Positions 2 through 12,264 of a stretch of DNA of 32,000 nucleotides are shown here, piece after piece. The notes under the pieces are model-generated. The model saw only the letters and a program-made list of their open reading frames with translations. It did not search any database and was not told the DNA's origin. Where the stretch lies: contig NZ_AP024169.1 of assembly GCF_016591975.1 (NCBI RefSeq), forward strand, positions 3,777,295-3,809,294, read 5' to 3'. Made by a program: the position numbers and the translations under genes. Position 1 is the stretch's first letter, and the number at the start of each line of letters is the position of its first letter. The stretch is from Anaeromicropila herbilytica. GTDB lineage: Bacteria > Bacillota > Clostridia > Lachnospirales > Lachnospiraceae.

Positions 2-2551
2 AATACTGAGATTGTGATACAGGTATCAAATTATTTATATGCATATAATGGAATCTTTTATCCAATTTACTTTGGTCCAGAAAAAGCAATAACTCATCAA
101 CGTATTTTAAGTGTACTTATTGATGGCTTTTTTATTATTGGCATGCTACTTATGTCTATCTACACTTTTGGAATTAGTTTTCAGAGAAAAAATAGAATTG
201 GATTACTTTTTTTCGCAGGATATTGCTTAGCTTCTGCTCTTTATAAGATGACATGTTCAGAAGTACTATTGAACTATTTATTTCCGAATATCTCGTTTAC
301 CTTTTGCTTTCAATTTCAAGCCTTCAGTATTCTAGCAGAATATTATCTTTTATTTTTATTTGCATATTATGCATTTAAAGTGCAATATAAAGGACTTAAA
401 AAGTTAGTTCACATCATAGCTTGTTTCTTCTTATGTTTAACACTTTTTACTAAATTTTATTTATGGAGTTATACATACATTCTCTTTTTTATAACTACCT
501 TATTGCTAATTATCTTAATAACTTATATCTTTTATAATCAGTTTCATATTGCTGTAATTGGAAAGACTCATTTGTATTTAGCAATGATCTGTTCCGTATT
601 ACTATTTATTGAATGCTTCTTTAATATTGTACTCGGTTTGGAATCTGACTATTTTCCTCCAATTGTACAGCCGATATTTGTTTTCGCTCTTTCTTTTTAT
701 ATGTCTGAAAATTATTCCGTTGCATTTGAGACAATTGAAACATTGAGTGCACGACTAACACAACTTGATAAGTTAAAAGATGACTTTTTAGCAAAGACTT
801 CACACGAATTAAAGACACCACTAAATGGTATTATTAATATATCTGAATCATTATTAGATGGTTCTGGTGGAACGTTAAACGAAGAACAATATGAAGATCT
901 ATCGCTCATTACTAATATAGGGAAACGCCTTTCCAATCTTGTATATGATATTTTAGATTATTCAAAACTTAAGAATGGTGCTCTCTCTCTTCACCTAACT
1001 ATTATTGATATCTACCCAGTAATCGACTCTACTCTAAATATCTTTCAATATCTAATAAAAGGGAAGATAATAGAATTTGATAACCAGGTGCCTTCCAATA
1101 CTTATTTTATCCTTGCAGACGAGAACCGATTTAAACAGATTGTTTTTAACCTTCTAGACAATGCCGTTAAGTTTACACCCAAAGGATCTATAACCATATC
1201 TGCATATTATGATAACTCAGAAGTATTTATAGCAGTCAAAGATACCGGAATCGGTATCCCAAGTTCTAAACTGGCAACTATATTTTATTCTTACGAGCAG
1301 CTTGAAATGAATGGTAACATATCAACTGGCGGTGTAGGTTTAGGACTCTCAATTACGAAACAATTAATTTCATTGCATAATGGTAGTATATTCGTAGAAT
1401 CAGATATAGGAAAAGGTAGTTGCTTTACCGTATCATTTCCTGCAAAAGCAAAGAATGAATTAACTCTAAAAGAAAAAGATGAGATCAATCCAAAAGTTGA
1501 TGATAATAATTTATCCAAAGAATATCATTTACCTTATTCAAAGCATATGAAAGGGAAAGCAAATATTCTTGTTGTCGATGATGAATATTCAAATCTTAAA
1601 TCCTTATTAAATGTACTTACCTTATGGAATTATAACGTAACCATAACGGATAATCCCAAAACAGCTCTTCAATTACTAATGAATAACCGGAGCTACGATC
1701 TTGTTATCTTAGATATTATGATGCCTTTTATGTCAGGATATGAAGTATGCAGACATTTAAGAATTAGATATAATTTTCTTGATCTTCCTATCCTAATACT
1801 CACAGCCAAGAATTCACCTATGGATATTCAAGCTGGATTTCATGCAGGAGCCAATGATTTTCTTGAAAAACCATTTGATTCAAAAGAGTTAGAATGTAGG
1901 GTAAATACTCTTATCCAACTAAAAAAATCAAAAGAATTATTGCTTGAGAGAGAAACTGCATTTTTACAGGCACAAATTAAACCACACTTTTTATTCAATG
2001 CATTAAACACCATCAACTCCTTTTGTTATAGCAATCCTGAGCAAGCTAGTAAGCTATTAATGGAACTTGGTGTATTCTTACGAGGTAGTTTTGATTTTAA
2101 AAGTACAGCAACTTATGTTACATTAGAAAAAGAACTTCGCTTAGTAAAGGCTTATGTTTCAATAGAAAAGGCACGATATGATAATAGATTGGAGATTGAT
2201 TATCAATACGATTCTTCCATTCTAAAGTACAGTATTCTTCCACTAACGATACAACCAATTGTTGAGAATTCCATCCGCCATGGTATTATGAAAAGAATTG
2301 GTGGTGGGCTTATTCAAGTCCGGATTACTACTGATCATGATGACATCTTTATTGAAGTATCTGATAATGGTATCGGAATGGATCAAACTATGATTTCTTC
2401 TCTACTAAGTGAAAAGCCAATTGGTGATGGTGTAGGCCTCTATAATATAAATTGTAGATTATTAAACTACTATAATACTTCTCTTAGAATTACAAGTAAT
2501 AAGGATCAGGGTACCCTTGTATCCTTTCACATACCCATGCAGATAAAATAA
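2..2551 (+). CDS. Hybrid sensor histidine kinase: 7TM sensor + HisKA/HATPase_c + receiver + second LytS/YesM-type His_kinase/HATPase core; probably 5'-partial
   Basis: About 7 hydrophobic helices in aa ~30-235 (7TMR-DISM-like). First kinase core: H-box 'SHELKTPL' (His codon 803-805) with N/G1/G2 boxes 'NLLDNAVKFT', 'DTGIGI', 'GGVGLGLSI'. Receiver: 'ILVVDDE...LVILDIMMP...ILTAK' (Asp codon 1712-1714). Second kinase core: 'QAQIKPHFLFNALNTI' (His codon 1985-1987) with 'ENSIRHG', 'DNGIGM', 'GVGLYNI'. The frame is open from nt 2, and the track's start at 14 is a GTG with no convincing RBS, so the true start is likely upstream of the window. Confidence 0.85.
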   Translation, partial: NTEIVIQVSNYLYAYNGIFYPIYFGPEKAITHQRILSVLIDGFFIIGMLLMSIYTFGISFQRKNRIGLLFFAGYCLASALYKMTCSEVLLNYLFPNISFTFCFQFQAFSILAEYYLLFLFAYYAFKVQYKGLKKLVHIIACFFLCLTLFTKFYLWSYTYILFFITTLLLIILITYIFYNQFHIAVIGKTHLYLAMICSVLLFIECFFNIVLGLESDYFPPIVQPIFVFALSFYMSENYSVAFETIETLSARLTQLDKLKDDFLAKTSHELKTPLNGIINISESLLDGSGGTLNEEQYEDLSLITNIGKRLSNLVYDILDYSKLKNGALSLHLTIIDIYPVIDSTLNIFQYLIKGKIIEFDNQVPSNTYFILADENRFKQIVFNLLDNAVKFTPKGSITISAYYDNSEVFIAVKDTGIGIPSSKLATIFYSYEQLEMNGNISTGGVGLGLSITKQLISLHNGSIFVESDIGKGSCFTVSFPAKAKNELTLKEKDEINPKVDDNNLSKEYHLPYSKHMKGKANILVVDDEYSNLKSLLNVLTLWNYNVTITDNPKTALQLLMNNRSYDLVILDIMMPFMSGYEVCRHLRIRYNFLDLPILILTAKNSPMDIQAGFHAGANDFLEKPFDSKELECRVNTLIQLKKSKELLLERETAFLQAQIKPHFLFNALNTINSFCYSNPEQASKLLMELGVFLRGSFDFKSTATYVTLEKELRLVKAYVSIEKARYDNRLEIDYQYDSSILKYSILPLTIQPIVENSIRHGIMKRIGGGLIQVRITTDHDDIFIEVSDNGIGMDQTMISSLLSEKPIGDGVGLYNINCRLLNYYNTSLRITSNKDQGTLVSFHIPMQIK

Positions 2552-2618: not shown

Positions 2619-3743
2619 ATGATAAAAGCAATTATCGTAGATAATGAAAAACCAGCAATACAAATATTAAAATTATTCTTAGAAAAGACAAATCAAATCG
2701 AAGTGATTGGTTGCTATTTAAACGCACCCAAAGCACTAGAAACTCTTATAACATTAGTGCCTGACGTTATTTTTCTTGATATTGATATGCCTCAAATGAA
2801 TGGCTTGGAGATGGCTGAAATCATTCAAAATCAAAATATTAATACAGAGATTGTATTTGTTACTGCATATAATCAATATGCACTTGATGCATTTCGTGTA
2901 AATGCTATTGACTATCTCTTAAAGCCACTCTCCATGGATGATATAGAAAAAACAGTAAAAAGGCTTAATAAAAGAATTATAACTACTCCATCTTTACCGA
3001 AAGTAAACAAAACGGCAAAAATTCATTGTTTTGGGAGACTCTTAGTGTATGGTTCTCCCGAAGATACCCCAATTAAGTGGAGAACTTCAAAAGCAGAGGA
3101 ATTATTTGCTTTTCTCTATCAAAACCGAGGCAATAGTGTACCTAAGACCGCAATCTGTAGTGCATTATGGAGTGATATTCCAGAGGATAAAGTAGATGTA
3201 TATCTCCACACTTCTATATATAAAATGAAAAAAGATCTACAAAGTTACCATATTCCTGTGGAGATAAAATTCAGTAATGGTTGTTATTATATGACGCTCC
3301 CTAATACATACAGTGATATAGAAGAATTTGATTCTATCATAGATTCTGATCTTCCTCTTGATTCTTCTACCCTCGAAAAATATGAGCGTGCGATCATTCT
3401 CTATAAAAATAATTATCTTGATAGCCATGAATACTTATGGTCTTTACCAACAAGAGAGCTTTATTATCAAAAATATCGTAACTTAATAAAACTTTTGGTA
3501 AATTATTATGTAAAAGAGAAAAATACAATAGCAATAGAGAAAATTATTAAACCATTATTAGAGAATTTTCCACTTGATGAATATGCTCATGAAACTTTAT
3601 TAAAAGTATATTATGTAAAAAAAGATCGTATTGCTTTTGTAACTCATTATAATCATATGCTTCGTTTGTATAAAAACAAATTAGGTATTACACCAAAACC
3701 TTCTATTGAAGCATTGTATAATAGTATTACAAAAAACACTTAA
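2619..3743 (+). CDS. Two-component response regulator, REC + SARP-like winged helix + BTAD (bacterial transcriptional activator domain)
   Basis: N-terminal receiver 'IIVDNE...VIFLDIDMPQMNG...VFVTAY...DYLLKP'. Middle 'KAEELFAFLYQNRG..VPKTAICSALW' looks like a winged-helix. The C-terminal helical-repeat region 'YERAIILYKNNYL...AHETLLKVYY...YNHMLRLYKNKLGITPKP' is typical of BTAD. RBS 'ataggaga' lies 6 nt before the ATG, 67 nt after the kinase stop. Confidence 0.8.
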   Translation: MIKAIIVDNEKPAIQILKLFLEKTNQIEVIGCYLNAPKALETLITLVPDVIFLDIDMPQMNGLEMAEIIQNQNINTEIVFVTAYNQYALDAFRVNAIDYLLKPLSMDDIEKTVKRLNKRIITTPSLPKVNKTAKIHCFGRLLVYGSPEDTPIKWRTSKAEELFAFLYQNRGNSVPKTAICSALWSDIPEDKVDVYLHTSIYKMKKDLQSYHIPVEIKFSNGCYYMTLPNTYSDIEEFDSIIDSDLPLDSSTLEKYERAIILYKNNYLDSHEYLWSLPTRELYYQKYRNLIKLLVNYYVKEKNTIAIEKIIKPLLENFPLDEYAHETLLKVYYVKKDRIAFVTHYNHMLRLYKNKLGITPKPSIEALYNSITKNT

Positions 3744-3848: not shown

Positions 3849-4586
3849 CTAATTGTTATGTTGAATATAATAATATAAATTTTCAACATATTGTTTTGCT
3901 TTCTCTTGGTCGGTTATCAGATCAAATGGATTATTTCCCGCTTCTATATACTGCTTAAAGAATGCTTTAATAACTTTATTTCTCTTTTCTCCACCTTCAA
4001 CATGATATTGGGCTCTAATTTGCTCAATCCTTTGTTTAATAACGCGATCAATGATTAGATCTTTATACCCAGTAATAATAATTGTAAATGAATCTCCTGT
4101 AAGAAATCTAAATTCTACACTATATACTCTTTGGTTTCCTTCTGACACACTTGCATAACAATAATATAATAAAAATTTAGGAATAAAATAGCCATTAATC
4201 TTATACCAATTTTCCGATTCCATAAAGCACTTATTCGGCAGATTAGATTCCGGTACACCCTTAAAATTTTGACTATTTATATGCTGTTTCAATACATTAT
4301 TAGGGATATACTGACTAATCCTTGGAACGCTTAACAATGGAGTTTTTATATATCTAATAAAGCTTGGAGACCATAACACAAGAATTATAACTATTACCAA
4401 TACACTTAAAAGTTCTTGTTGGTTTGATTTGATATCGATAGAATTTCCAGAAATATAATTGGAAACATAAACGATAATGTTATCTATTACATAAATTGCC
4501 AAGCACGAATATACCAAAAGACTTATAACTTTTTTTAAAGGATGTAGTTTTTTTAATTCGCATTCATTTACTGAATTATATGCCAT
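3849..4586 (-). CDS. Hypothetical membrane protein (two N-terminal TM helices + ~150-aa soluble domain); last gene of the toxin-like operon
   Basis: 245-aa ORF with strong RBS 'gaggaggaaac' upstream of the ATG. Hydrophobic segments are 'VISLLVYSCLAIYVIDNIIVYV' and 'LLSVLVIVIILVLWSP'. I recognise no family motif. Confidence 0.7.
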   Translation of the reverse strand: MAYNSVNECELKKLHPLKKVISLLVYSCLAIYVIDNIIVYVSNYISGNSIDIKSNQQELLSVLVIVIILVLWSPSFIRYIKTPLLSVPRISQYIPNNVLKQHINSQNFKGVPESNLPNKCFMESENWYKINGYFIPKFLLYYCYASVSEGNQRVYSVEFRFLTGDSFTIIITGYKDLIIDRVIKQRIEQIRAQYHVEGGEKRNKVIKAFFKQYIEAGNNPFDLITDQEKAKQYVENLYYYIQHNN

Positions 4587-4647: not shown

Positions 4648-5100
4648 TTACTCTTCCCCTTTTTTCTCATATCCTACTTTAACTTGCATATAAGAAAAAC
4701 TATCATCACTAAAAATAACATGATACATAGGTGTAGTTTGATTTAAGGAAGACTGATTCATCAGTGTAAGTAGTGCTGAATATGCCAATTCTGTATCTTG
4801 CTCATAATCCTTCCATACAGTTGTAGACATCATATTCTCAACAGAATAATAAGAATGATAATACATAGTATCTGGCAGAGTGATATTTTCCTCTACTACT
4901 GGCATAAATAATTCAACTGACATAATCTCATCCATTGGAACGTTTTTCATTGAATAAAATAGTGGTCCATTTTTATGTAAATTTAATTTCTTTATTTCTG
5001 ATCCAAATTCATCTAATACTTCTTTCATATCATTATAATGAAAAGCGTAGTTTTTTGAAACAACATTGGTATAACGAATCGAATCTTTCAGATTAATCAT
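4648..5100 (-). CDS. Small soluble protein, paralogue of 5118-5561; possibly GyrI-like/DUF5085-like (candidate immunity protein)
   Basis: 150-aa ORF starting 17 nt after the upstream gene's stop. It shares motifs with its neighbour: 'NGPLFYSMKN' vs 'TGPMIYQMRN', and 'ELFMPV' vs 'TLFIPV'. The family assignment is from memory of size and pattern only. Confidence 0.7.
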   Translation of the reverse strand: MINLKDSIRYTNVVSKNYAFHYNDMKEVLDEFGSEIKKLNLHKNGPLFYSMKNVPMDEIMSVELFMPVVEENITLPDTMYYHSYYSVENMMSTTVWKDYEQDTELAYSALLTLMNQSSLNQTTPMYHVIFSDDSFSYMQVKVGYEKKGEE

Positions 5101-5117: not shown

Positions 5118-5561
5118 TTACATCTTGATAATCGGTGCATAAATATCAACAATACTACCTCCAAACACTGGAAGATATATATTATAGAATGTTTCTTCAA
5201 GCTCCACACCAATCGATTGTGCTGTCATTTTTAATAATTCGTAGGAATCTTCAAAATCCTCATCCATATCAGAATGACGATAGGTTAATCCATCTTCGAA
5301 AGATAATGTATCCAAATAGAAGAATTTCTCATTTTCCTCCATATTAATCGGAGCATTCACAGGTATAAATAATGTAAATTCCTTCTTATCACTTTCCTTG
5401 ATATTCCTCATCTGATAAATCATTGGTCCTGTTGGATACAAACCATTTCTAATGATGGCATTACGTAATTCCTTTGATGCATTCATCCATTCATTTGATT
5501 CACATATTTCTTTTACGCTTATTACATGATGTAATATCAAAGAGCCTCTTTTAATCTTCAT
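5118..5561 (-). CDS. Small soluble protein, paralogue of 4648-5100 (candidate immunity protein)
   Basis: ORF 5118-5573. The first ATG (5573) is followed by 'ggaggtaatt' and then a second ATG (5561). The GGAGG is therefore better read as the RBS of the second ATG, giving 'MKIKRGS...'. Confidence 0.7.
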   Translation of the reverse strand: MKIKRGSLILHHVISVKEICESNEWMNASKELRNAIIRNGLYPTGPMIYQMRNIKESDKKEFTLFIPVNAPINMEENEKFFYLDTLSFEDGLTYRHSDMDEDFEDSYELLKMTAQSIGVELEETFYNIYLPVFGGSIVDIYAPIIKM

Positions 5562-5669
5562 AATTACCTCCATTTTGCAAATATTTCTAGAAGAATTTTA
5601 CAATTCATTAGAGCTTCTGTAAATCTATTCTATTAAATCTGTAATATATTTTCGTCTACTAACAATGTT

Positions 5670-6851
5670 CTAAAATATTCCACTTACGAAATTACATACA
5701 GAGTTATATCCGTTACTTAACCCCTCTTCTACTGCATCAACCGAGTTCTCAGCAAGCATTTTCACACCATCAACTAAACTATCACTTTGGTTATCTCCAT
5801 CAAAATCATATATCTCACAATTAATTGCCCAGTTAATTGCTGCTCCACTTGCTGCTCCAACAACTGTACCTACTGGAGGCACTATAAAGGAACCAATTGC
5901 TGCTCCTGCTGCTACTGCTCCTGCTCCTGTACCCAAATCTACCGCTGAATCTATAACAAATTTTTCTGTATTATCAGCGGAATATTCCCACTTTCCATCT
6001 TTATAAAAATTATCAACAAAATCACTACCTACGTCAAATGCAGTGGATGCTGCTCCTAAAAATTTTGCTGACTTTCCAAGCTTACCCAAGCCTTCATAAT
6101 CAGCTTTTTTAAATCCATCTGTTAATTCCTTAAATGTTAATCCATTCATCAGTTTATTTCCAAATATGTTCAATTTACTTTTTGATAAATTATCCATATA
6201 ATTACCCAACATTTTATAATCTACATTATCAAAGTAACGATTTTTTCCACGTGTAAATACATCGTTCCTTAAATCATATATATCTATCCCTCTATTTTTA
6301 AGTGTTCTCGTCAAATAATCTGTCCATGTAGTGGAACCACCGAGTAAATTGGTAAGACTATCACTTAATTCCCTGTTTGTCTTATCCGTTATTGCTTTGA
6401 TATATTTTACTCCATTGACTTCAAATGTTTCAAACCTTAAGCCACTACGAAGAATATCTAAGGCCTCTGCAAAGGATTTATCCTTAAATTGCCCAAAAGC
6501 ATTAAAGAAAAATTCAAAACCATCATTACCTTTTCCATTCTTCATTATATCATATATTTGTTTCCAGATTGGACTATATTGGGTTACAATGTCTTCTTCT
6601 GCTTCTTGATATTTGTTGATTGATTGCTTTAGAGTTTCTTTCATAGCATTCATACCTATCTGATATCGCTTCAGTTCATCTTCAATCTGCTTTAATTGCT
6701 CTCCTATACCACATTCAAAGCTGATAGATGAACGTATTCCACTTCTAACATCACCGACTCTTGTATGTAATTGTTCTAATGTCTTCTTATATTCATTTAG
6801 TGTATTAATTTCGACTACTAACTGTTTAATTTTAACTAACAGATCTTGCAC
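5670..6851 (-). CDS. Toxin-like protein: N-terminal helical hairpin (WXG100/LXG-like by appearance) + C-terminal glycine-zipper hydrophobic region
   Basis: 393-aa ORF with a GTG start preceded by 'aaggaggga'. The N-terminal ~95 aa are heptad-like and helical with a Gly-containing turn 'FECGIGEQ'. The C-terminal 'GTGAGAVAAGAAIGSFIVPPVGTVVGAASGAAINWAI' (about nt 5817-5954) has GxxxG repeats and is followed by an acidic tail. Confidence 0.75.
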   Translation of the reverse strand: MQDLLVKIKQLVVEINTLNEYKKTLEQLHTRVGDVRSGIRSSISFECGIGEQLKQIEDELKRYQIGMNAMKETLKQSINKYQEAEEDIVTQYSPIWKQIYDIMKNGKGNDGFEFFFNAFGQFKDKSFAEALDILRSGLRFETFEVNGVKYIKAITDKTNRELSDSLTNLLGGSTTWTDYLTRTLKNRGIDIYDLRNDVFTRGKNRYFDNVDYKMLGNYMDNLSKSKLNIFGNKLMNGLTFKELTDGFKKADYEGLGKLGKSAKFLGAASTAFDVGSDFVDNFYKDGKWEYSADNTEKFVIDSAVDLGTGAGAVAAGAAIGSFIVPPVGTVVGAASGAAINWAINCEIYDFDGDNQSDSLVDGVKMLAENSVDAVEEGLSNGYNSVCNFVSGIF

Positions 6852-6908
6852 AATTATCCCTCCTTATCCTTATTTTATCTTATCACAAACTATATTATTT
6901 GTGTTGAA

Positions 6909-6948
6909 TTCCTGACAGACGACATGTTTTCCTGACAGACAACATGTT
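6909..6948. repeat. Tandem direct repeat 2 x 20 bp (candidate operator)
   Basis: 'ttcctgacagacgacatgtt' (6909-6928) is immediately followed by 'ttcctgacagacaacatgtt' (6929-6948), with 1 mismatch. The pair lies 58-97 bp upstream of the GTG of the 5670-6851 gene, in the divergent intergenic region. Confidence 0.9.
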
Positions 6949-7121
6949 AAATACTTTTTTTGTATCTTTTAATACTATTTTAAAGCCATTTTATATCAGT
7001 GCTTGAACCTTTTACATTGTCGTAGTCATAACAAATCTGTGAATTAACTTATGATGTAAAATATATCTTAGTCCTATTCCAAGCCATCTCTTTGTTGAGT
7101 TTCATATCAACATTTCATTGT

Positions 7122-7150
7122 TTTACACTGTTCTACTTCTATGGTATGCT
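7122..7150 (+). promoter_or_regulatory. Putative sigma-A promoter for the XRE-FlhA_C-like gene
   Basis: 'tttaca' (7122-7127), 17-nt spacer, 'tatgct' (7145-7150) preceded by 'tgg' (extended -10 TGn). It lies about 77 nt upstream of the ATG. Confidence 0.35.
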
Positions 7151-7226
7151 ATCTACATGGAATTCCAAAATAATGAAAACAAGATATCTTATACAATAAG
7201 AAAATAACAATAAAGGAGTCACTGAC

Positions 7227-8054
7227 ATGAATATTAATAATTTTGCAGAAAGACTTATCATAGCTAGAAAAGAAAAAGGATATACTCAAGAAGAATTAGC
7301 TTTACGCTTGGGTGTTACCCCTCAGGCAATTTCAAAATGGGAGCGAAATAATAGCTATCCAGATATAGAATTACTTTGCTCTATTGCAAATGTTCTAGAT
7401 TCTTCTTTGGATTATCTATTAAATATCCAGTTAAAATCCTCTCAAATGACAGATGATATTAATGAACTTAAGAAACAGCAGTTACTTCAAAGTGCTTTAT
7501 CAGACCCTCTTCTTCTAGAAATAGGTACCTCCTTAGTTGAATTGATGATTGAGGAAAATCAAAATCAATTCAAACATCTCCATACCGTTAAGGAACATCT
7601 AGCTGAACAATATGGCATAATACTTCCACTTGTTCGTATTCGCGATGTTGATAGCATCGGTGAATATGAATATCGATTTTATAGTTATGATAAATTAATT
7701 GGTTCTGGTACTTTAACACCTTTTATAAATTATGAAGAAGAAAAAGAAGATGCCATTCGAGTAATAATGGAACACTTTGAAAAAGTTGCTTATGAGAACT
7801 ATTCTAAGATTATTAATAAAGAAATAGTAAGTAACTTAATTACAAGCCTTAGGTTGGACTATCCAGCAGTAGTCGAAGGGGTTATACCAGAAAAGATCTC
7901 TCTCTTAACTCTTGTTCAAATACTTAGTAAATTAGTGGAGAACCGAACTTCCATTCGTAACCTTATTAAAATTATTGAGATTATTGAGAATGAAATAGAT
8001 AAAACAAGCGATTATGATGCCATTGTCTCGATTATTGAAGATTACCTCAAATAA
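7227..8054 (+). CDS. XRE-family HTH fused to an FlhA/FHIPEP cytoplasmic-domain-like module
   Basis: N-terminus 'RLIIARKEKGYTQEELALRLGVTPQAISKWERNNSYPDIELLCSIANVLDSSLDYLL' is a classic HTH_3. The C-terminal ~180 aa (nt ~7503-8051) contain 'LLLEIGTSLVEL...ILPLVRIRD...EYEYRF' and 'YPAVVEGVIPEKISLLTLVQILSKLVENRTSIRNLIKIIEII'. These parallel the recalled FlhA C-domain motifs 'IEFEFGYGLIPL...VIPVVRIRDN...NEYRLKI' and 'YPVLVEEVTPNPLSVGDIQKVLAKLLKEKVSIRNLVTIFETL'. RBS 'aaaggag'. Confidence 0.8.
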   Translation: MNINNFAERLIIARKEKGYTQEELALRLGVTPQAISKWERNNSYPDIELLCSIANVLDSSLDYLLNIQLKSSQMTDDINELKKQQLLQSALSDPLLLEIGTSLVELMIEENQNQFKHLHTVKEHLAEQYGIILPLVRIRDVDSIGEYEYRFYSYDKLIGSGTLTPFINYEEEKEDAIRVIMEHFEKVAYENYSKIINKEIVSNLITSLRLDYPAVVEGVIPEKISLLTLVQILSKLVENRTSIRNLIKIIEIIENEIDKTSDYDAIVSIIEDYLK

Positions 8055-8126: not shown

Positions 8127-9920
8127 CTAAAAACCATTCAAGTTAAGTAGCTTTATTTTTGAAGCATAATCAACAAAAGAAGTATTGACATCAACCCTTC
8201 CTGAGATTCCATTTACCGAACCCGAAGAACTATATTGCCACAATCCAACAGCTCCACTATAGGTAATAGAAGATCCCCACTGTGCTAGCCAGTGATCATA
8301 ATCTTCTAGTTTGGTATCATCCAGTTTGGTTGTAAACCATGTTTTATTGGTATAGATAACAGGATAATATCCTGCCTCTTTTAGTTTATCTAAATATACA
8401 AGAGCAATTTTAGTTAATGTATCCTTACTAAGTTTACTTTGAGAAGAATCTTCAATATCAACGCATACTGGATATTCAAATGTTTTTCCTTCTAATTGTT
8501 TGATAAAAAATTCTACCTCTGTGGTTGCTTTCGCCACAGTAGTAGCATAACTGTAATGATAAGCTCCTACCGCAATTCCATTATCCTTAGCCCCTTGATA
8601 ATTTTTCTCAAACATAGGATCAACGCTACTACTTCCATAGGAAGCTCTAAGCATTGCAAATTCAACTCCGTCTTCCTCTACTGCCTCCCAATCAATGTTA
8701 CCTTGCCATTTTGATACATCAATTCCTTTAATCTCAGCATTCTTAACCGTCACCTTACATGTTGCAGTTTTCTCCCCATCATCCGTTGTTACATAAATAA
8801 TAGCGGAACCTGTAGCAACGGCTGTGATCTTACCTTTACTACTTACTGTAGCAACCGTCTTATCTGAAGACTTCCAAGTCACAGACTTATTTGTAGCATT
8901 TTGAGGCGTTATTGATGCTTTTAAAGTATATGTCTCTCCTAATGCTAGTGTATTTGAAGTCTTATTTAGTGATACAGACTGCACATCCGCTTGTGATATC
9001 TTTTTACTAATGGAAGAGGAATAGCTACTATATACTTTCTTTTGATCTACTTTACGATACGCCCTAACTTTATAATAATAAGTTGTTCCAGATGTTAACT
9101 CTGAATCATCATAACTAGTTGTTGATACCGTTGCTAACAGCTCATAAGTACCTGCATTTTGCGTTGCTCGATATAATTGATATCCACTTGCTCCCGATGT
9201 ACTTTTCCAACTTAATTGTATGCTACTTTCGGTTGAGGATTGAACACTTAAAGAAGATGGCGCTGATAATGAGGGTTTCGTACATACCACTACAGAATAA
9301 TTACTATATACACTTGCTTTTCCAACGGTTTTACATGCTCTCACTTTGTAGTAGTAGGTTGTTCCTGTGCTTACTGTTTTGTCCTTATAACTCTTTCCCT
9401 TTATAGTAGCAATAGATTTATATGTACCAGTTTTACTTGTACTACGAAATAACTGATACCTAGTGGCTCCAGCTACTCCTCCCCAACTGATATTAACACT
9501 ATCATAAGAAGATGTTGTTTTTACTAAAGTCGGTGATGAAGGAATTGGTTTTGCCTTTGTAGCTGTAGAAAATGAACTATAAGTCATTTTACTTGAAGTA
9601 ATTTTATATGCTTTTATTTTGTAATAGTATGTTGTTCCTGTGGTTAATCCTGTATTTTTATATGTATGAGCAGTAGTAGTCATAATCAGTTTATAAGTCC
9701 CCTTACTCGATGTAGCTCTATAAACTTTGTATCCACTTACCCCAGATACCGTGTTCCAACTGATATAGGAACTATTATAAGAGTAAGATACAGCTTTCAC
9801 ACTTCCTGGCTTAGATGGAGCTTTCGTTGCTGCGCTAGCAGACATCTCCGGTAATACGAGTCCTCCAGTAATAATTAGAAACAATAGAATGATACTAAAA
9901 TTATTTTTTATTCCTTTCAT
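8127..9920 (-). CDS. Secreted cell-wall hydrolase: signal peptide + 3 FN3-like repeats + Big_2 + GH25 muramidase (lysozyme)
   Basis: Signal peptide 'MKGIKNNFSIILLFLIITGGLVLPEMSASA'. Three ~90-aa repeats each end in 'GTTYYYK(I/V)(K/R)A'. Big_2 region: 'VQSVSLNKTSNTLALGETYTLKASITPQNATNKSVTWKSSDKTVATV'. GH25 region: 'GIDVSKWQGNIDWEAVEEDGVEFAMLRASYG...CVDIED'. Confidence 0.9.
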   Translation of the reverse strand: MKGIKNNFSIILLFLIITGGLVLPEMSASAATKAPSKPGSVKAVSYSYNSSYISWNTVSGVSGYKVYRATSSKGTYKLIMTTTAHTYKNTGLTTGTTYYYKIKAYKITSSKMTYSSFSTATKAKPIPSSPTLVKTTSSYDSVNISWGGVAGATRYQLFRSTSKTGTYKSIATIKGKSYKDKTVSTGTTYYYKVRACKTVGKASVYSNYSVVVCTKPSLSAPSSLSVQSSTESSIQLSWKSTSGASGYQLYRATQNAGTYELLATVSTTSYDDSELTSGTTYYYKVRAYRKVDQKKVYSSYSSSISKKISQADVQSVSLNKTSNTLALGETYTLKASITPQNATNKSVTWKSSDKTVATVSSKGKITAVATGSAIIYVTTDDGEKTATCKVTVKNAEIKGIDVSKWQGNIDWEAVEEDGVEFAMLRASYGSSSVDPMFEKNYQGAKDNGIAVGAYHYSYATTVAKATTEVEFFIKQLEGKTFEYPVCVDIEDSSQSKLSKDTLTKIALVYLDKLKEAGYYPVIYTNKTWFTTKLDDTKLEDYDHWLAQWGSSITYSGAVGLWQYSSSGSVNGISGRVDVNTSFVDYASKIKLLNLNGF

Positions 9921-10099
9921 TTGTGTTTAAATAGCCTCCTGATTTCTTAATTTTTGATTATATATATATTAAGCTCAAAATGTGATACTAACTTGTCATT
10001 TCTATTCCAATATAGAATAATTCTGACACAAATGGATATTTTATCAATATTTTAGTAGCAATTTATACTATGCATTTTATAAAATTGTATTTATGGTTT

Positions 10100-10175
10100 G
10101 GGTGTCAAAAGTCATTCTCTACATTAATTATACAGCGATATACACTCAATAAACTAAAAATGACTTTTGACACCC
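10100..10175. repeat. 76-bp hairpin element with 17-bp perfect inverted arms; a related copy is at 26882-26929
   Basis: 'gggtgtcaaaagtcatt' (10100-10116) and 'aatgacttttgacaccc' (10159-10175) are separated by a 42-nt spacer. The reverse complement of 10129-10175 aligns at roughly 80% identity with 26882-26929. Confidence 0.85.
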
Positions 10176-10189
10176 TAACCATTTATACA

Positions 10190-10235
10190 ATAAATAAAAA
10201 TACCGAAAGAATAGATTCCCTATCCTTTCGGTATT
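10190..10235 (-). terminator. Rho-independent terminator of the MetRS-family gene
   Basis: On the minus strand, the stem 'ataccgaaag' / 'ctttcggtat' is followed by 'ttttatttatt'. It begins 8 nt after the stop codon (10243-10245). Confidence 0.8.
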
Positions 10236-10242
10236 TCATCAC

Positions 10243-12264
10243 TTATTCTGCTATAATCTGGCTCTCATGTTTTGCAAAGAAGTCAATTCTTGGTTCCAAG
10301 AATTTCAACTCATGGTGCTCTACATCCTTTGTAAAGAAATCCATTGTCTCGAAGATATATTCCCAATTCCAGATCTTATCACTTACATTTAGATAATCAC
10401 GAATCATCTCACATCCTTCTGGGGCAATAGGATGAATGAATGCTGTTGCAGTTCGAACAGCATGGAAGGAGTCAATTAACACTTGCTTTCTAAGAGCATC
10501 ATCTTCCTCTTTCTCAGCTATTCTCATATTATTTACCCAATATTTATTAGCATTACGAAGATAAGTATCTAACAAATAAGTAATCATATGAAACTCGTGA
10601 TTATACATTTTTAGTTCATAATCAAGAATAGCTTCTTTAGCTTCTGATAGCACAGAATCACTTATGGAACCTTCTGGAATCTTAGAGTCATAATATTTTT
10701 GTGCTGTATAGAAGCAAGAACGAACCAAGCGATTGAATACATTGGTTAATAAATTGCCATCTTTTAGAACTGTATCTACCCCTTCTCTTTCCTCTTCTTT
10801 CATATAGACTTGTGGCTTAAAGCTTACGCTTTTATTCGATAATCCAAGACTTAGGAAATGAATTCTTAATTGTTCCTTTGTATAGTAGTTCAGTAGTTCT
10901 TTTGCCATTGGAGGCTTAATCTCACTGCTACTACTTGCTTTCTTATCCATAAAAAGTATATGATTGTTAGCAATTAGGTGAGTTGATCTTAACTTACCCT
11001 CTTCTGGATCAATCGTATAATCTTTTCCCTGCAAAGCCATAAATAAAGCCATTTGCGCAACTCCATAGAAATAGATATTATCCTCACCTATGAATTGATA
11101 TACCTTTGCATCTTTGGACTTCCACCAGTTTTCCCATTCTGTTTTATCCTTACCAATTGATTCTAGATAAGTTTTGGTAAATGATATTGGAGCCCATAAG
11201 GATTCTGGCCATACCCAGAAAGTTAGATTCGATTCACCTTCAATTTCTGGTACTTTCACTCCCCATTCAATATTACCTGTCAAACGGAATGGAACTAAAG
11301 TCTTACCTGTTCGATAGTTAATTCCCTCTTTGGTTAAGATGTTACAAGCTTCTTCCCTGTCTGTCAACTTTTCAAACAAGATCGTTATTGATGCTTTTTT
11401 CTCTTCTTCAAGTAGCTTATGTTTAGGAAGAGCATCTATGATATCTTTCTTCTCTTCATAGTAAGATTTCTTAATATATATGATAGGTTTTTTTAAGAAT
11501 TCTTCCATGGTATTCAATTGATATTTTCTTGAGTTTGTATTTGTTCTAAAATAGGATACCAATTCTCTCAGCGGTTCAAAGAATTCTTCTAATTTGAAAT
11601 ACCAATTGGATACTTCTCTTAATTCGGGTTTCTTACTAGATAAAGCACTAATTGGGTTAATTAATTCACTTGGCATATACTGATGTCCTAAAGAACACTC
11701 ATCTGCATAACCTTTCTCTGATTGACATCCTTCAATTGGACATTTACCAACTACCTGCCTTCCATTTAGGAACACCTTATACTCTGGATCATAGAATTGA
11801 GGTGTCGATAGTTTTTCAAGATATCCATTATGATAAAGTGATTCAAAAATATCCTTTGATACTTCTTCATGAATCTCACTTGCTCTATCTAGAGCACTTG
11901 CTCCATATAGGTTTAAACTAATATCATAATCTTCTAATGTCTGTTTTTGCTTTTCATGATTACCATTCACATAATCATGAATACTTCCGTCAAATTCACC
12001 ATTCTCTACAAGTTTACGATAACTCTCTAAGATTGGTGATCCATAGCAGTCCGTGCCAGATACAAAGATTACATTCTCTTCACCAATTCGATCCCTTAAG
12101 AACCTTGCAAAGGTATCTGCATGAACGAATACTCCACCAACATGACCAAAATGTAATTCTTTATTACCATATGGCATACCAGCTGTTATCACTGCTCTTT
12201 TAGGAAATTCAGGTCTGACTTTTTCCTTTTTGGGTCTTCTATCAATTTTATTATTGTCTTCCAT
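10243..12264 (-). CDS. metG: Methionyl-tRNA synthetase family class I aaRS (divergent; no C-terminal tRNA-binding domain)
   Basis: HIGH region: 'MPYGNKELHFGHVGG', then 'SGTDCYGSPI'. 'QFYDPEYKVFLNGRQVVGKCPIEGCQSEKGYADECSLGHQYMPSELINP' parallels recalled E. coli MetRS '[48 protein letters not shown]'. 'YQFIGEDNIYFYG' parallels 'YHFIGKDIVYFH'. The KMSKS position reads 'KKASSSS'. A T-box leader lies upstream. Confidence 0.85.
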   Translation of the reverse strand: MEDNNKIDRRPKKEKVRPEFPKRAVITAGMPYGNKELHFGHVGGVFVHADTFARFLRDRIGEENVIFVSGTDCYGSPILESYRKLVENGEFDGSIHDYVNGNHEKQKQTLEDYDISLNLYGASALDRASEIHEEVSKDIFESLYHNGYLEKLSTPQFYDPEYKVFLNGRQVVGKCPIEGCQSEKGYADECSLGHQYMPSELINPISALSSKKPELREVSNWYFKLEEFFEPLRELVSYFRTNTNSRKYQLNTMEEFLKKPIIYIKKSYYEEKKDIIDALPKHKLLEEEKKASITILFEKLTDREEACNILTKEGINYRTGKTLVPFRLTGNIEWGVKVPEIEGESNLTFWVWPESLWAPISFTKTYLESIGKDKTEWENWWKSKDAKVYQFIGEDNIYFYGVAQMALFMALQGKDYTIDPEEGKLRSTHLIANNHILFMDKKASSSSEIKPPMAKELLNYYTKEQLRIHFLSLGLSNKSVSFKPQVYMKEEEREGVDTVLKDGNLLTNVFNRLVRSCFYTAQKYYDSKIPEGSISDSVLSEAKEAILDYELKMYNHEFHMITYLLDTYLRNANKYWVNNMRIAEKEEDDALRKQVLIDSFHAVRTATAFIHPIAPEGCEMIRDYLNVSDKIWNWEYIFETMDFFTKDVEHHELKFLEPRIDFFAKHESQIIAE

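Follow-up and report, generated by a model that had tools for sequence, protein, structure and literature searches.

A putative TelE/EsxX-class toxin-immunity cassette with a WXG100-like toxin head in Anaeromicropila herbilytica

The closest described relatives of the locus analyzed here are TelE and EsxX, antibacterial effectors of type VIIb secretion systems (T7SSb). TelE of Streptococcus gallolyticus is neutralized by TipE, a DUF5085 protein of 151 amino acids (aa) (PMC10434224), and the two DUF5085 proteins of TelE act as a heterodimer (bioRxiv 10.64898/2026.03.12.711312). EsxX of Staphylococcus aureus ST398 is neutralized in the cytoplasm by the DUF5085 heterodimer ExiA-ExiB, in which ExiB binds the glycine zipper, while the polytopic proteins ExiC/ExiD protect against EsxX from outside (PMC12744356). 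The mechanism of T7SSb toxin export so far rests on LXG domains and Lap1/Lap2 chaperones. WXG-headed polymorphic toxins, in which an N-terminal WXG domain directs a C-terminal toxin to the T7SS, have been catalogued computationally by Zhang et al. 2012, the examples considered here being mainly actinobacterial (PMC3482391). Here we describe four co-directional genes (6851 to 3849, minus strand) in a 32,000-nucleotide (nt) stretch of Anaeromicropila herbilytica DNA (Lachnospiraceae; contig NZ_AP024169.1, positions 3,777,295 to 3,809,294), referred to below as the window. They encode a 393-aa glycine-zipper protein, two DUF5085 paralogs (D1 and D2) and a protein with two predicted transmembrane (TM) helices. 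We read them as a toxin gene with its immunity genes, the toxin being an exported, membrane-attacking T7SSb effector of the TelE/EsxX class, and put the probability of this reading at roughly 75%. The three genes after the toxin are probably self-protection genes. The parts of the cassette are as follows.

5670..6851, minus strand: toxin gene, 393 aa, intact open reading frame (ORF) with a GTG start
6858..6865, minus strand: ribosome-binding site AAGGAGGG, read from the sequence, 7 nt before the GTG start
6537..6851, minus strand: N-terminal antiparallel helical hairpin of ~105 aa, WXG100-superfamily-like by AlphaFold2 (AF2) model and profile comparison
6597..6611, minus strand: motif YxxxE (Y81-Q-E-A-E85), in which hairpin helix 2 ends, a candidate signal for T7SS export
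6192..6479, minus strand: central alpha/beta domain, aa ~125-220, conserved in family alignments, with a pLDDT (predicted local distance difference test) of 77-95 in the AF2 model
5832..5933, minus strand: extended glycine zipper G316xxxG320 - P325P326 - G328xxxG332xxxG336, two helices split by Pro-Pro, predicted membrane-inserting hairpin
5673..5816, minus strand: acidic C-terminal tail, aa 346-393, with the DFDGDNQSDSLVD motif
5118..5573, minus strand: DUF5085 paralog D1, 151 aa (Pfam PF16895, E 2.4e-11, 44.7 bits against a cut-off of 30)
4648..5100, minus strand: DUF5085 paralog D2, 150 aa (Pfam PF16895, E 1e-29, 104.3 bits against a cut-off of 30)
3849..4586, minus strand: membrane protein of 245 aa, TM helices at ~aa 19-42 and 54-82, C-terminal soluble domain

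By sequence comparison, each part of this cassette has a homologous counterpart in T7SSb-linked cassettes. The original prediction, made from the DNA letters, had noted two small downstream proteins of the right size and had named a DUF5085-family protein as the one that neutralizes TelE. Published work bears this out (PMC10434224; PMC12744356), and both small proteins score above the DUF5085 cut-off. D1 occupies the position of ExiA and Gallo_0564, and every comparison locus has an ortholog of it as its first DUF5085-like gene (27-39% identity). D2 stands in the position of ExiB and TipE and is better kept, with 29-52% identity to the second DUF5085 gene of other loci. Its second place and its closer conservation recall ExiB and TipE and make D2 the likely zipper-binding protein of the pair and a candidate immunity protein. 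The third gene after the toxin encodes a 2-TM protein for which no Pfam or NCBIfam family was found. This protein is homologous to the gene directly downstream of the T7SS-embedded toxin in another locus (L005 in our numbering; 30% over 179 aa, E 5e-11), and its grouping with the equivalent from locus L006 was made solely via a three-sequence hidden Markov model (HMM) built from all three proteins. We assign it to the toxin cassette on this homology, as a candidate membrane-level immunity or assembly factor.

The toxin gene carries a strong ribosome-binding site with an AAGGAGG core, and an identical 393-aa protein is recorded for A. herbilytica as a hypothetical protein. From the N-terminus to the C-terminus, the toxin consists of the WXG100-like hairpin, a central alpha/beta and helical region, the glycine-zipper hairpin and the acidic tail. 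Its structure was modeled by AF2 with a 76-sequence alignment (mean pLDDT 67.9), the model from a shallower alignment of 12 sequences (pLDDT 43) having been discarded. The Ala/Gly-rich stretch with GxxxG spacing that had been pointed out at nt ~5817-5954 corresponds to aa 300-345 (nt 5817-5954) and is a conserved zipper. Its glycines lie at positions 307, 309, 311, 316 and 320, followed by P325-P326 and then by G328, G332 and G336; the focal segment reads VPPVGTVVGA, and the Kyte-Doolittle hydrophobic windows of the toxin span aa 306-331. The zipper is not a matter of chance composition: among 76 aligned short- and mid-form family members, no column is invariant except G328 and G332, and conservation is 90% or higher at G316, G320, P325, P326, T329 and G336. 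The published EsxX zipper peptide SAATGTAIGAGIGGPFGAAIGAAIGTMVG, which binds ExiAB, matches the module profile in register, with Pro opposite Pro. It scores 4.7 bits, whereas the best of 500 shuffles of matched composition scored 3.7, which supports a common zipper layout and is not proof of full-domain homology.

The acidic tail that had been proposed to follow the zipper is indeed acidic, with 10 Asp/Glu versus 1 Lys/Arg in its 48 residues. Most family members have a DxDGDGxKDSxVD motif after the zipper, present in the focal toxin as DFDGDNQSDSLVD (aa 349-361), which we take to resemble calcium-binding DxDxDG loops. The central ~200 aa, in which the original prediction recognized no match, show no Pfam or NCBIfam family above cut-off, no PDB match and no significant Foldseek match. 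At the level of the whole protein, the full model gave no Foldseek match in the PDB with E<1 (local matches were generic helical hairpins), and PDB sequence and profile searches with the toxin, the toxin module and the D2 family found no relative and picked up no chain of the EsxX/ExiAB or TelE complexes. Weak matches to the type VI secretion effector BTH_I2691, to MccV, to DUF1269 and to colicin and pyocin S5 pore domains scored below cut-offs and were treated as compositional.

The N-terminus had been described as a helical hairpin with a Gly-containing turn, of WXG/LXG-like type. The hairpin is found in the AF2 model, with helices at aa 8-38 and 49-105 (pLDDT ~90-97) and a turn that contains G38, G48 and G50; for its type, the WXG100 half of the description held and the LXG half did not. 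Comparison of the short-head family profile with 16 genuine WXG100 proteins taken from T7SS loci gave a full-length match in hhalign (96.9%, E 1.6e-10, 94 columns), whereas a reversed-column control gave 4.7% (E 0.0085). A similar score was obtained against the small partner proteins encoded upstream of short-form toxins (96.2%, E 2.3e-9). The focal protein on its own matches the local WXG100 HMM with E 3.7e-5, and a bona fide WXG100 domain (2e-15) is present in 2 of the 76 short and mid forms. In T7SSa as well as T7SSb, YxxxD/E is recognized as a signal for exporting WXG100-type substrates (PMC13492133), and the corresponding positions are ~96% conserved in short N-termini, with Tyr in 65/67 and Glu/Asp in 64/67. 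Local Foldseek matches of the head include HP0062 (probability 0.97) and the T. curvata EsxA:EsxB dimer (probability 0.66), alongside generic hairpins. Judged by these profiles, the focal head is a WXG100-type hairpin and not an LXG domain. The toxin had been noted to be shorter than typical LXG toxins, and it is so because its head is of the WXG100 type.

The toxin module is widespread. An exhaustive search with a family profile of the C-terminal ~260 aa (alignment A2) retrieved 922 cluster representatives with E<=1e-3, of which 113 reached E<=1e-30; a word-indexed search had given 11 relatives. Gene contexts were taken from metagenomic contigs and from 25 reference-genome loci, and were annotated with HMMs built in this analysis, which match the focal toxin at 1e-96 (toxin module) and 6e-21 (short N-terminus). 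In this family, the module is fused to LXG, WXG100 or WXG100-like heads. The number of residues ahead of the module is bimodal, at 95-169 in ~65 of 94 full-length relatives and at least 220 in 21, and the short architecture is thus the majority form of the family and no oddity. Nearly every full-length toxin locus has the order toxin, one or two membrane proteins (2-9 predicted TM helices), D1 and D2. The family members P0007 and P0010 are located within T7SSb clusters, and in L005 and L006 the cluster around the toxin comprises an FHA-FtsK/SpoIIIE EssC, YukD and WXG100 genes. The TelE-like reading offered by the original prediction is supported on three counts: both downstream proteins are DUF5085, the module is common to Pfam-LXG proteins and T7SSb-embedded toxins, and the zipper has the EsxX-type GxxxG-Pro-GxxxG layout.

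Family members occur in Roseburia and other Lachnospiraceae, Paenibacillus, Cohnella, Bacillus, Fredinandcohnia, Cytobacillus and one Alloscardovia; for a member from Enterococcus, the NCBI name is 'T7SS effector LXG polymorphic toxin'. With the C-terminal module of an Enterococcus LXG member as query, only Enterococcus and S. uberis relatives were retrieved, and TelE was not. In the actinobacterial locus of Alloscardovia venturai (L030, Bifidobacteriaceae; 9350-12178), a D2-type DUF5085 gene accompanies the toxin module (E 2e-35). No short head and no LXG head was detected there, which may reflect cross-phylum transfer or a third head type.

Short-form and LXG-form loci differ in their surroundings. 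EssC is found within 10 kb in 11/16 short-form loci versus 2/9 LXG-form loci. Seven of the nine LXG-form relatives are therefore more than 10 kb from any EssC, and distance from the core machinery is normal for this toxin family. For the same reason, the description of the focal toxin as an orphan, which holds for the 32-kb window, is weak evidence against T7SS export. In each of the nine LXG-form loci, the Lap1/Lap2 position upstream of the toxin is taken by two small ORFs, whereas short-form loci usually have one upstream WXG-like partner bearing an Ala/Glu/Arg-rich tail; the focal locus and L001 have none.

In the partner ORFs directly upstream of the toxin in L013, L017-L021, L024, L026 and L029, WQAxE/WKAEE replaces WxG and is accompanied by a long Ala/Glu/Arg-rich tail. 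At the profile level, the short-form partner proteins match WXG100 (97%), and from their sequences they look like a distinct family serving WXG100-headed toxins. A conserved protein of ~135 aa follows D2 in L001 (12696-13121), L004 (3860-4261), L012, L014 and L032 and is not present at the focal locus; no Pfam match was found for it in the precomputed annotation of L001 and L004.

Taken with the described systems, these features suggest how the cassette could work. The WXG100-like head, with its own YxxxE, would serve as a targeting domain that presents the toxin to the T7SSb ATPase EssC, probably paired as a dimer with a WXG100-type partner encoded elsewhere or with a second copy of itself. 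Inside the producer, a D1-D2 heterodimer would keep the zipper region soluble and non-toxic in the cytoplasm, as ExiAB does for EsxX. After export, the Pro-broken zipper hairpin would insert into the membrane of neighboring Gram-positive cells, where it may oligomerize and depolarize or permeabilize the target membrane. The 2-TM protein would either protect at the membrane or help to assemble the pre-secretion complex. A further and more tentative proposal, to which we give somewhat less than even odds, is that the WxG-less YxxxE head marks a distinct, Lap-independent T7SSb route, with the toxin acting as one WXG100 subunit. It would pair with a single small WQAxE-type partner that bears an Ala/Glu/Arg-rich tail or, at loci that lack a partner gene such as the focal one, with the core EsxA or itself. 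Roughly 70% of full-length members would use this route.

Several observations weigh against an exported TelE/EsxX-class toxin. First, a six-frame HMM scan of the 32-kb window detected no T7SS component (EssC, YukD, WXG100, FHA or Lap-like) and no frame resembling a partner, Lap or WXG protein; the statement of the original prediction that no T7SS apparatus gene is nearby is in agreement with this. Second, the genes stand in a permuted order that none of the 29 comparison loci shares, with the membrane protein last. Third, the head lacks the WxG turn motif (present in 1 of 67 short heads) and is sub-threshold for Pfam WXG100 (PF06013, E 0.05, 14.3 bits versus a cut-off of 27.3) and for DUF5344 (E 0.003). 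Fourth, the zipper helices (292-323 and 327-344) are modeled at low confidence, which is expected for a partner-bound or membrane-inserted segment. Finally, the likeness to the two characterized toxins has gaps. The sequence comparison with EsxX comprises a 29-aa peptide alone, and that with TelE the glycine spacing alone. Membrane immunity to EsxX is provided by a pair of 6-TM proteins (DUF5079/DUF5080), whereas the focal locus has one 2-TM protein after the DUF5085 pair. For TelE, the partner has 6 TM helices and the gene adjoins the T7SSb core, neither of which applies here.

The likeliest alternative is a stranded cassette: A. herbilytica would have no functional T7SS, the toxin would not be exported, and D1, D2 and the 2-TM protein would persist as an immunity island beside a toxin gene that is still intact, or the whole as an addiction-like module. 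The missing T7SS and partner genes in the 32 kb fit this explanation, as do the permuted gene order and the loss, here and in L001, of the upstream partner gene that is usual for short forms. However, the toxin ORF is intact behind a strong ribosome-binding site, and all family-invariant residues are kept, including the YxxxE and the zipper glycines. A distance of more than 10 kb from EssC is, as described above, normal among LXG-form relatives, and EssC is common in Lachnospiraceae (at least 7,946 matches to an EssC query). Moreover, in the EsxX study, orphan immunity islands carry membrane immunity genes and not the cytoplasmic DUF5085 pair, which co-occurs with the toxin (PMC12744356). We found nothing on secretion systems in the literature on Anaeromicropila. 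On balance, we consider a stranded cassette unlikely.

Under a second alternative, the focal protein would be a genuine LXG toxin whose LXG domain is shortened or has diverged, and it would need Lap1/Lap2-type partners encoded elsewhere. UniRef names the focal protein 'LXG domain-containing protein', MAFFT places the short head on both ends of the LXG region, and hhalign finds a weak match between the short head and the LXG head (30%, E 5.6e-4) that falls on the second half of the LXG region. Against this, the WXG100 profile match is far stronger and full length. The focal protein has no match to Pfam LXG (PF04740) even at E<=1, and at E<=0.01 such a match is present in 0/76 short and mid forms versus 17/22 long forms (best 2.8e-58). 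N-terminal lengths are bimodal and not continuous, and short-form loci have one WXG-like upstream partner in place of the two Lap-like ORFs of every LXG-form locus. A divergent LXG toxin is accordingly improbable, and the UniRef label is inaccurate.

A membrane-active protein independent of the T7SS is very improbable. It could be a bacteriocin that leaves the cell through lysis or a different exporter, or it could work inside the cell as a holin-like or abortive-infection effector. In its favor, EsxX is also toxic when acting from the cytoplasm (PMC12744356), the gene of a secreted GH25 muramidase lies ~1.3 kb upstream, and the zipper region shows sub-threshold similarities to bacteriocin and pore-former families (MccV E 0.12, pyocin S5 E 0.12; in one family member each, Bacteriocin_IIc E 0.038 and Colicin E 0.0068). 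Against it, all these scores are non-significant, no signal peptide, double-glycine leader or ABC exporter was found at the focal locus, and the family shows a systematic association with T7SSb genes and with WXG100/LXG heads.

Expression of the putative exported toxin may be regulated. The region directly upstream of the toxin gene (6852-7226) is non-coding, with no partner gene, and contains the following element.

6909..6948, minus strand: tandem 20-bp direct repeat AACATGT(T/C)GTCTGTCAGGAA x2, candidate operator overlapping the -35 of a promoter-like site

The repeat is unique in the window (2 matches versus 0 expected in 100 shuffles). The promoter-like site, CTGTCA-18-TATAGT (6918 to 6889, minus strand), is a consensus match only, and the promoter/terminator scan as a whole was not enriched, with 28 promoter-like sites versus 24 expected from shuffles. 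Operon boundaries were therefore inferred from gene spacing only. The position of the repeat over the -35 suggests regulated toxin expression, perhaps by a direct-repeat-binding regulator.

Other genes in the neighborhood were also annotated. Divergent from the toxin gene, 7227-8054 (plus strand) encodes a 275-aa protein that combines an XRE-type helix-turn-helix (aa 13-64) with a FlhA/SctV cytoplasmic C-terminal segment (Pfam FHIPEP E 4e-22; B. subtilis FlhA-C structure 3mix E 2e-13). A type-III export-gate domain on a transcription factor is unusual, and this gene was not found beside toxin homologs in other loci. At 8127-9920 (minus strand), ~1.3 kb upstream of the toxin and on the same strand, lies the gene for the secreted GH25 muramidase (597 aa, with FN3-like repeats and Big_2); the other loci revealed no connection between such a gene and the cassette. 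On the other side, 14-2551 (plus strand) encodes an 845-aa sensor with 7TMR-DISM, HisKA+HATPase, REC and a second, LytS-type His_kinase+HATPase in one polypeptide, and 2619-3743 (plus strand), convergent with the end of the toxin operon, encodes a response regulator of REC - winged-helix - BTAD (SARP-like) architecture.

The toxin/immunity class is already known, as is the catalogued idea of WXG-headed toxins; in the literature consulted, we found no description of a characterized T7SSb toxin with a short WxG-less head. What is new here is that the TelE/EsxX-like module sits mostly on a WxG-less WXG100-type head and not on LXG, that the short forms follow a partner-gene pattern of one upstream partner instead of two, and that a Lachnospiraceae isolate holds a partner-less, T7SS-distant and order-permuted example. 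About 70 short-form relatives pair the same zipper toxin and DUF5085 set with a much shorter WXG100-type head, and would offer a simple system for studying the minimal EssC signal and a toxin that forms half of a WXG100 dimer. If the tentative route proposed above is real, ~70% of full-length members with this module bypass the LXG-Lap1-Lap2 stalk of current mechanistic work. Beyond staphylococci and streptococci, the TelE/EsxX class now also takes in Lachnospiraceae, Paenibacillaceae and Bacillaceae, and a 2-TM protein joins it as a new candidate accessory factor at the membrane level.

Among known systems, TspA, Tse4 and CdzC/D share with the focal toxin, by description, GxxxG-repeat helices proposed to oligomerize in the target membrane (PMC10434224; PMC12744356), but polytopic membrane proteins alone confer immunity to them, and not DUF5085. 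WXG100 proteins (EsxA/EsxB, PF06013) resemble the focal head in their ~100-aa antiparallel hairpin, in YxxxD/E at the end of helix 2 and in the family-profile match, and differ in the WxG motif and in the Pfam score. TelE is larger (514 aa), has an LXG domain and needs LapE1, LapE2 and a DUF4176 protein, none of which is present at the focal locus. Like the focal toxin, it is a glycine-zipper protein; the DUF5085 protein that neutralizes it works with a second DUF5085, a pair whose counterpart here would be D1 and D2, and its critical glycines 458, 466, 470 and 474 are spaced +8, +4, +4, as are focal G320, G328, G332 and G336; from this spacing only, TelE G470 would correspond to focal G332. 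EsxX, at 517 aa, differs in having a ~200-aa LXG domain and LapX3/LapX4 partners, compared with a ~105-aa WXG100-like head and no partner genes here. The two agree in a Pro-broken, C-terminal extended glycine zipper, the focal one being in register with the EsxX 448-476 peptide, in two adjacent DUF5085 genes and in an extra membrane protein in the locus, and the relatives of the focal toxin are T7SSb-linked.

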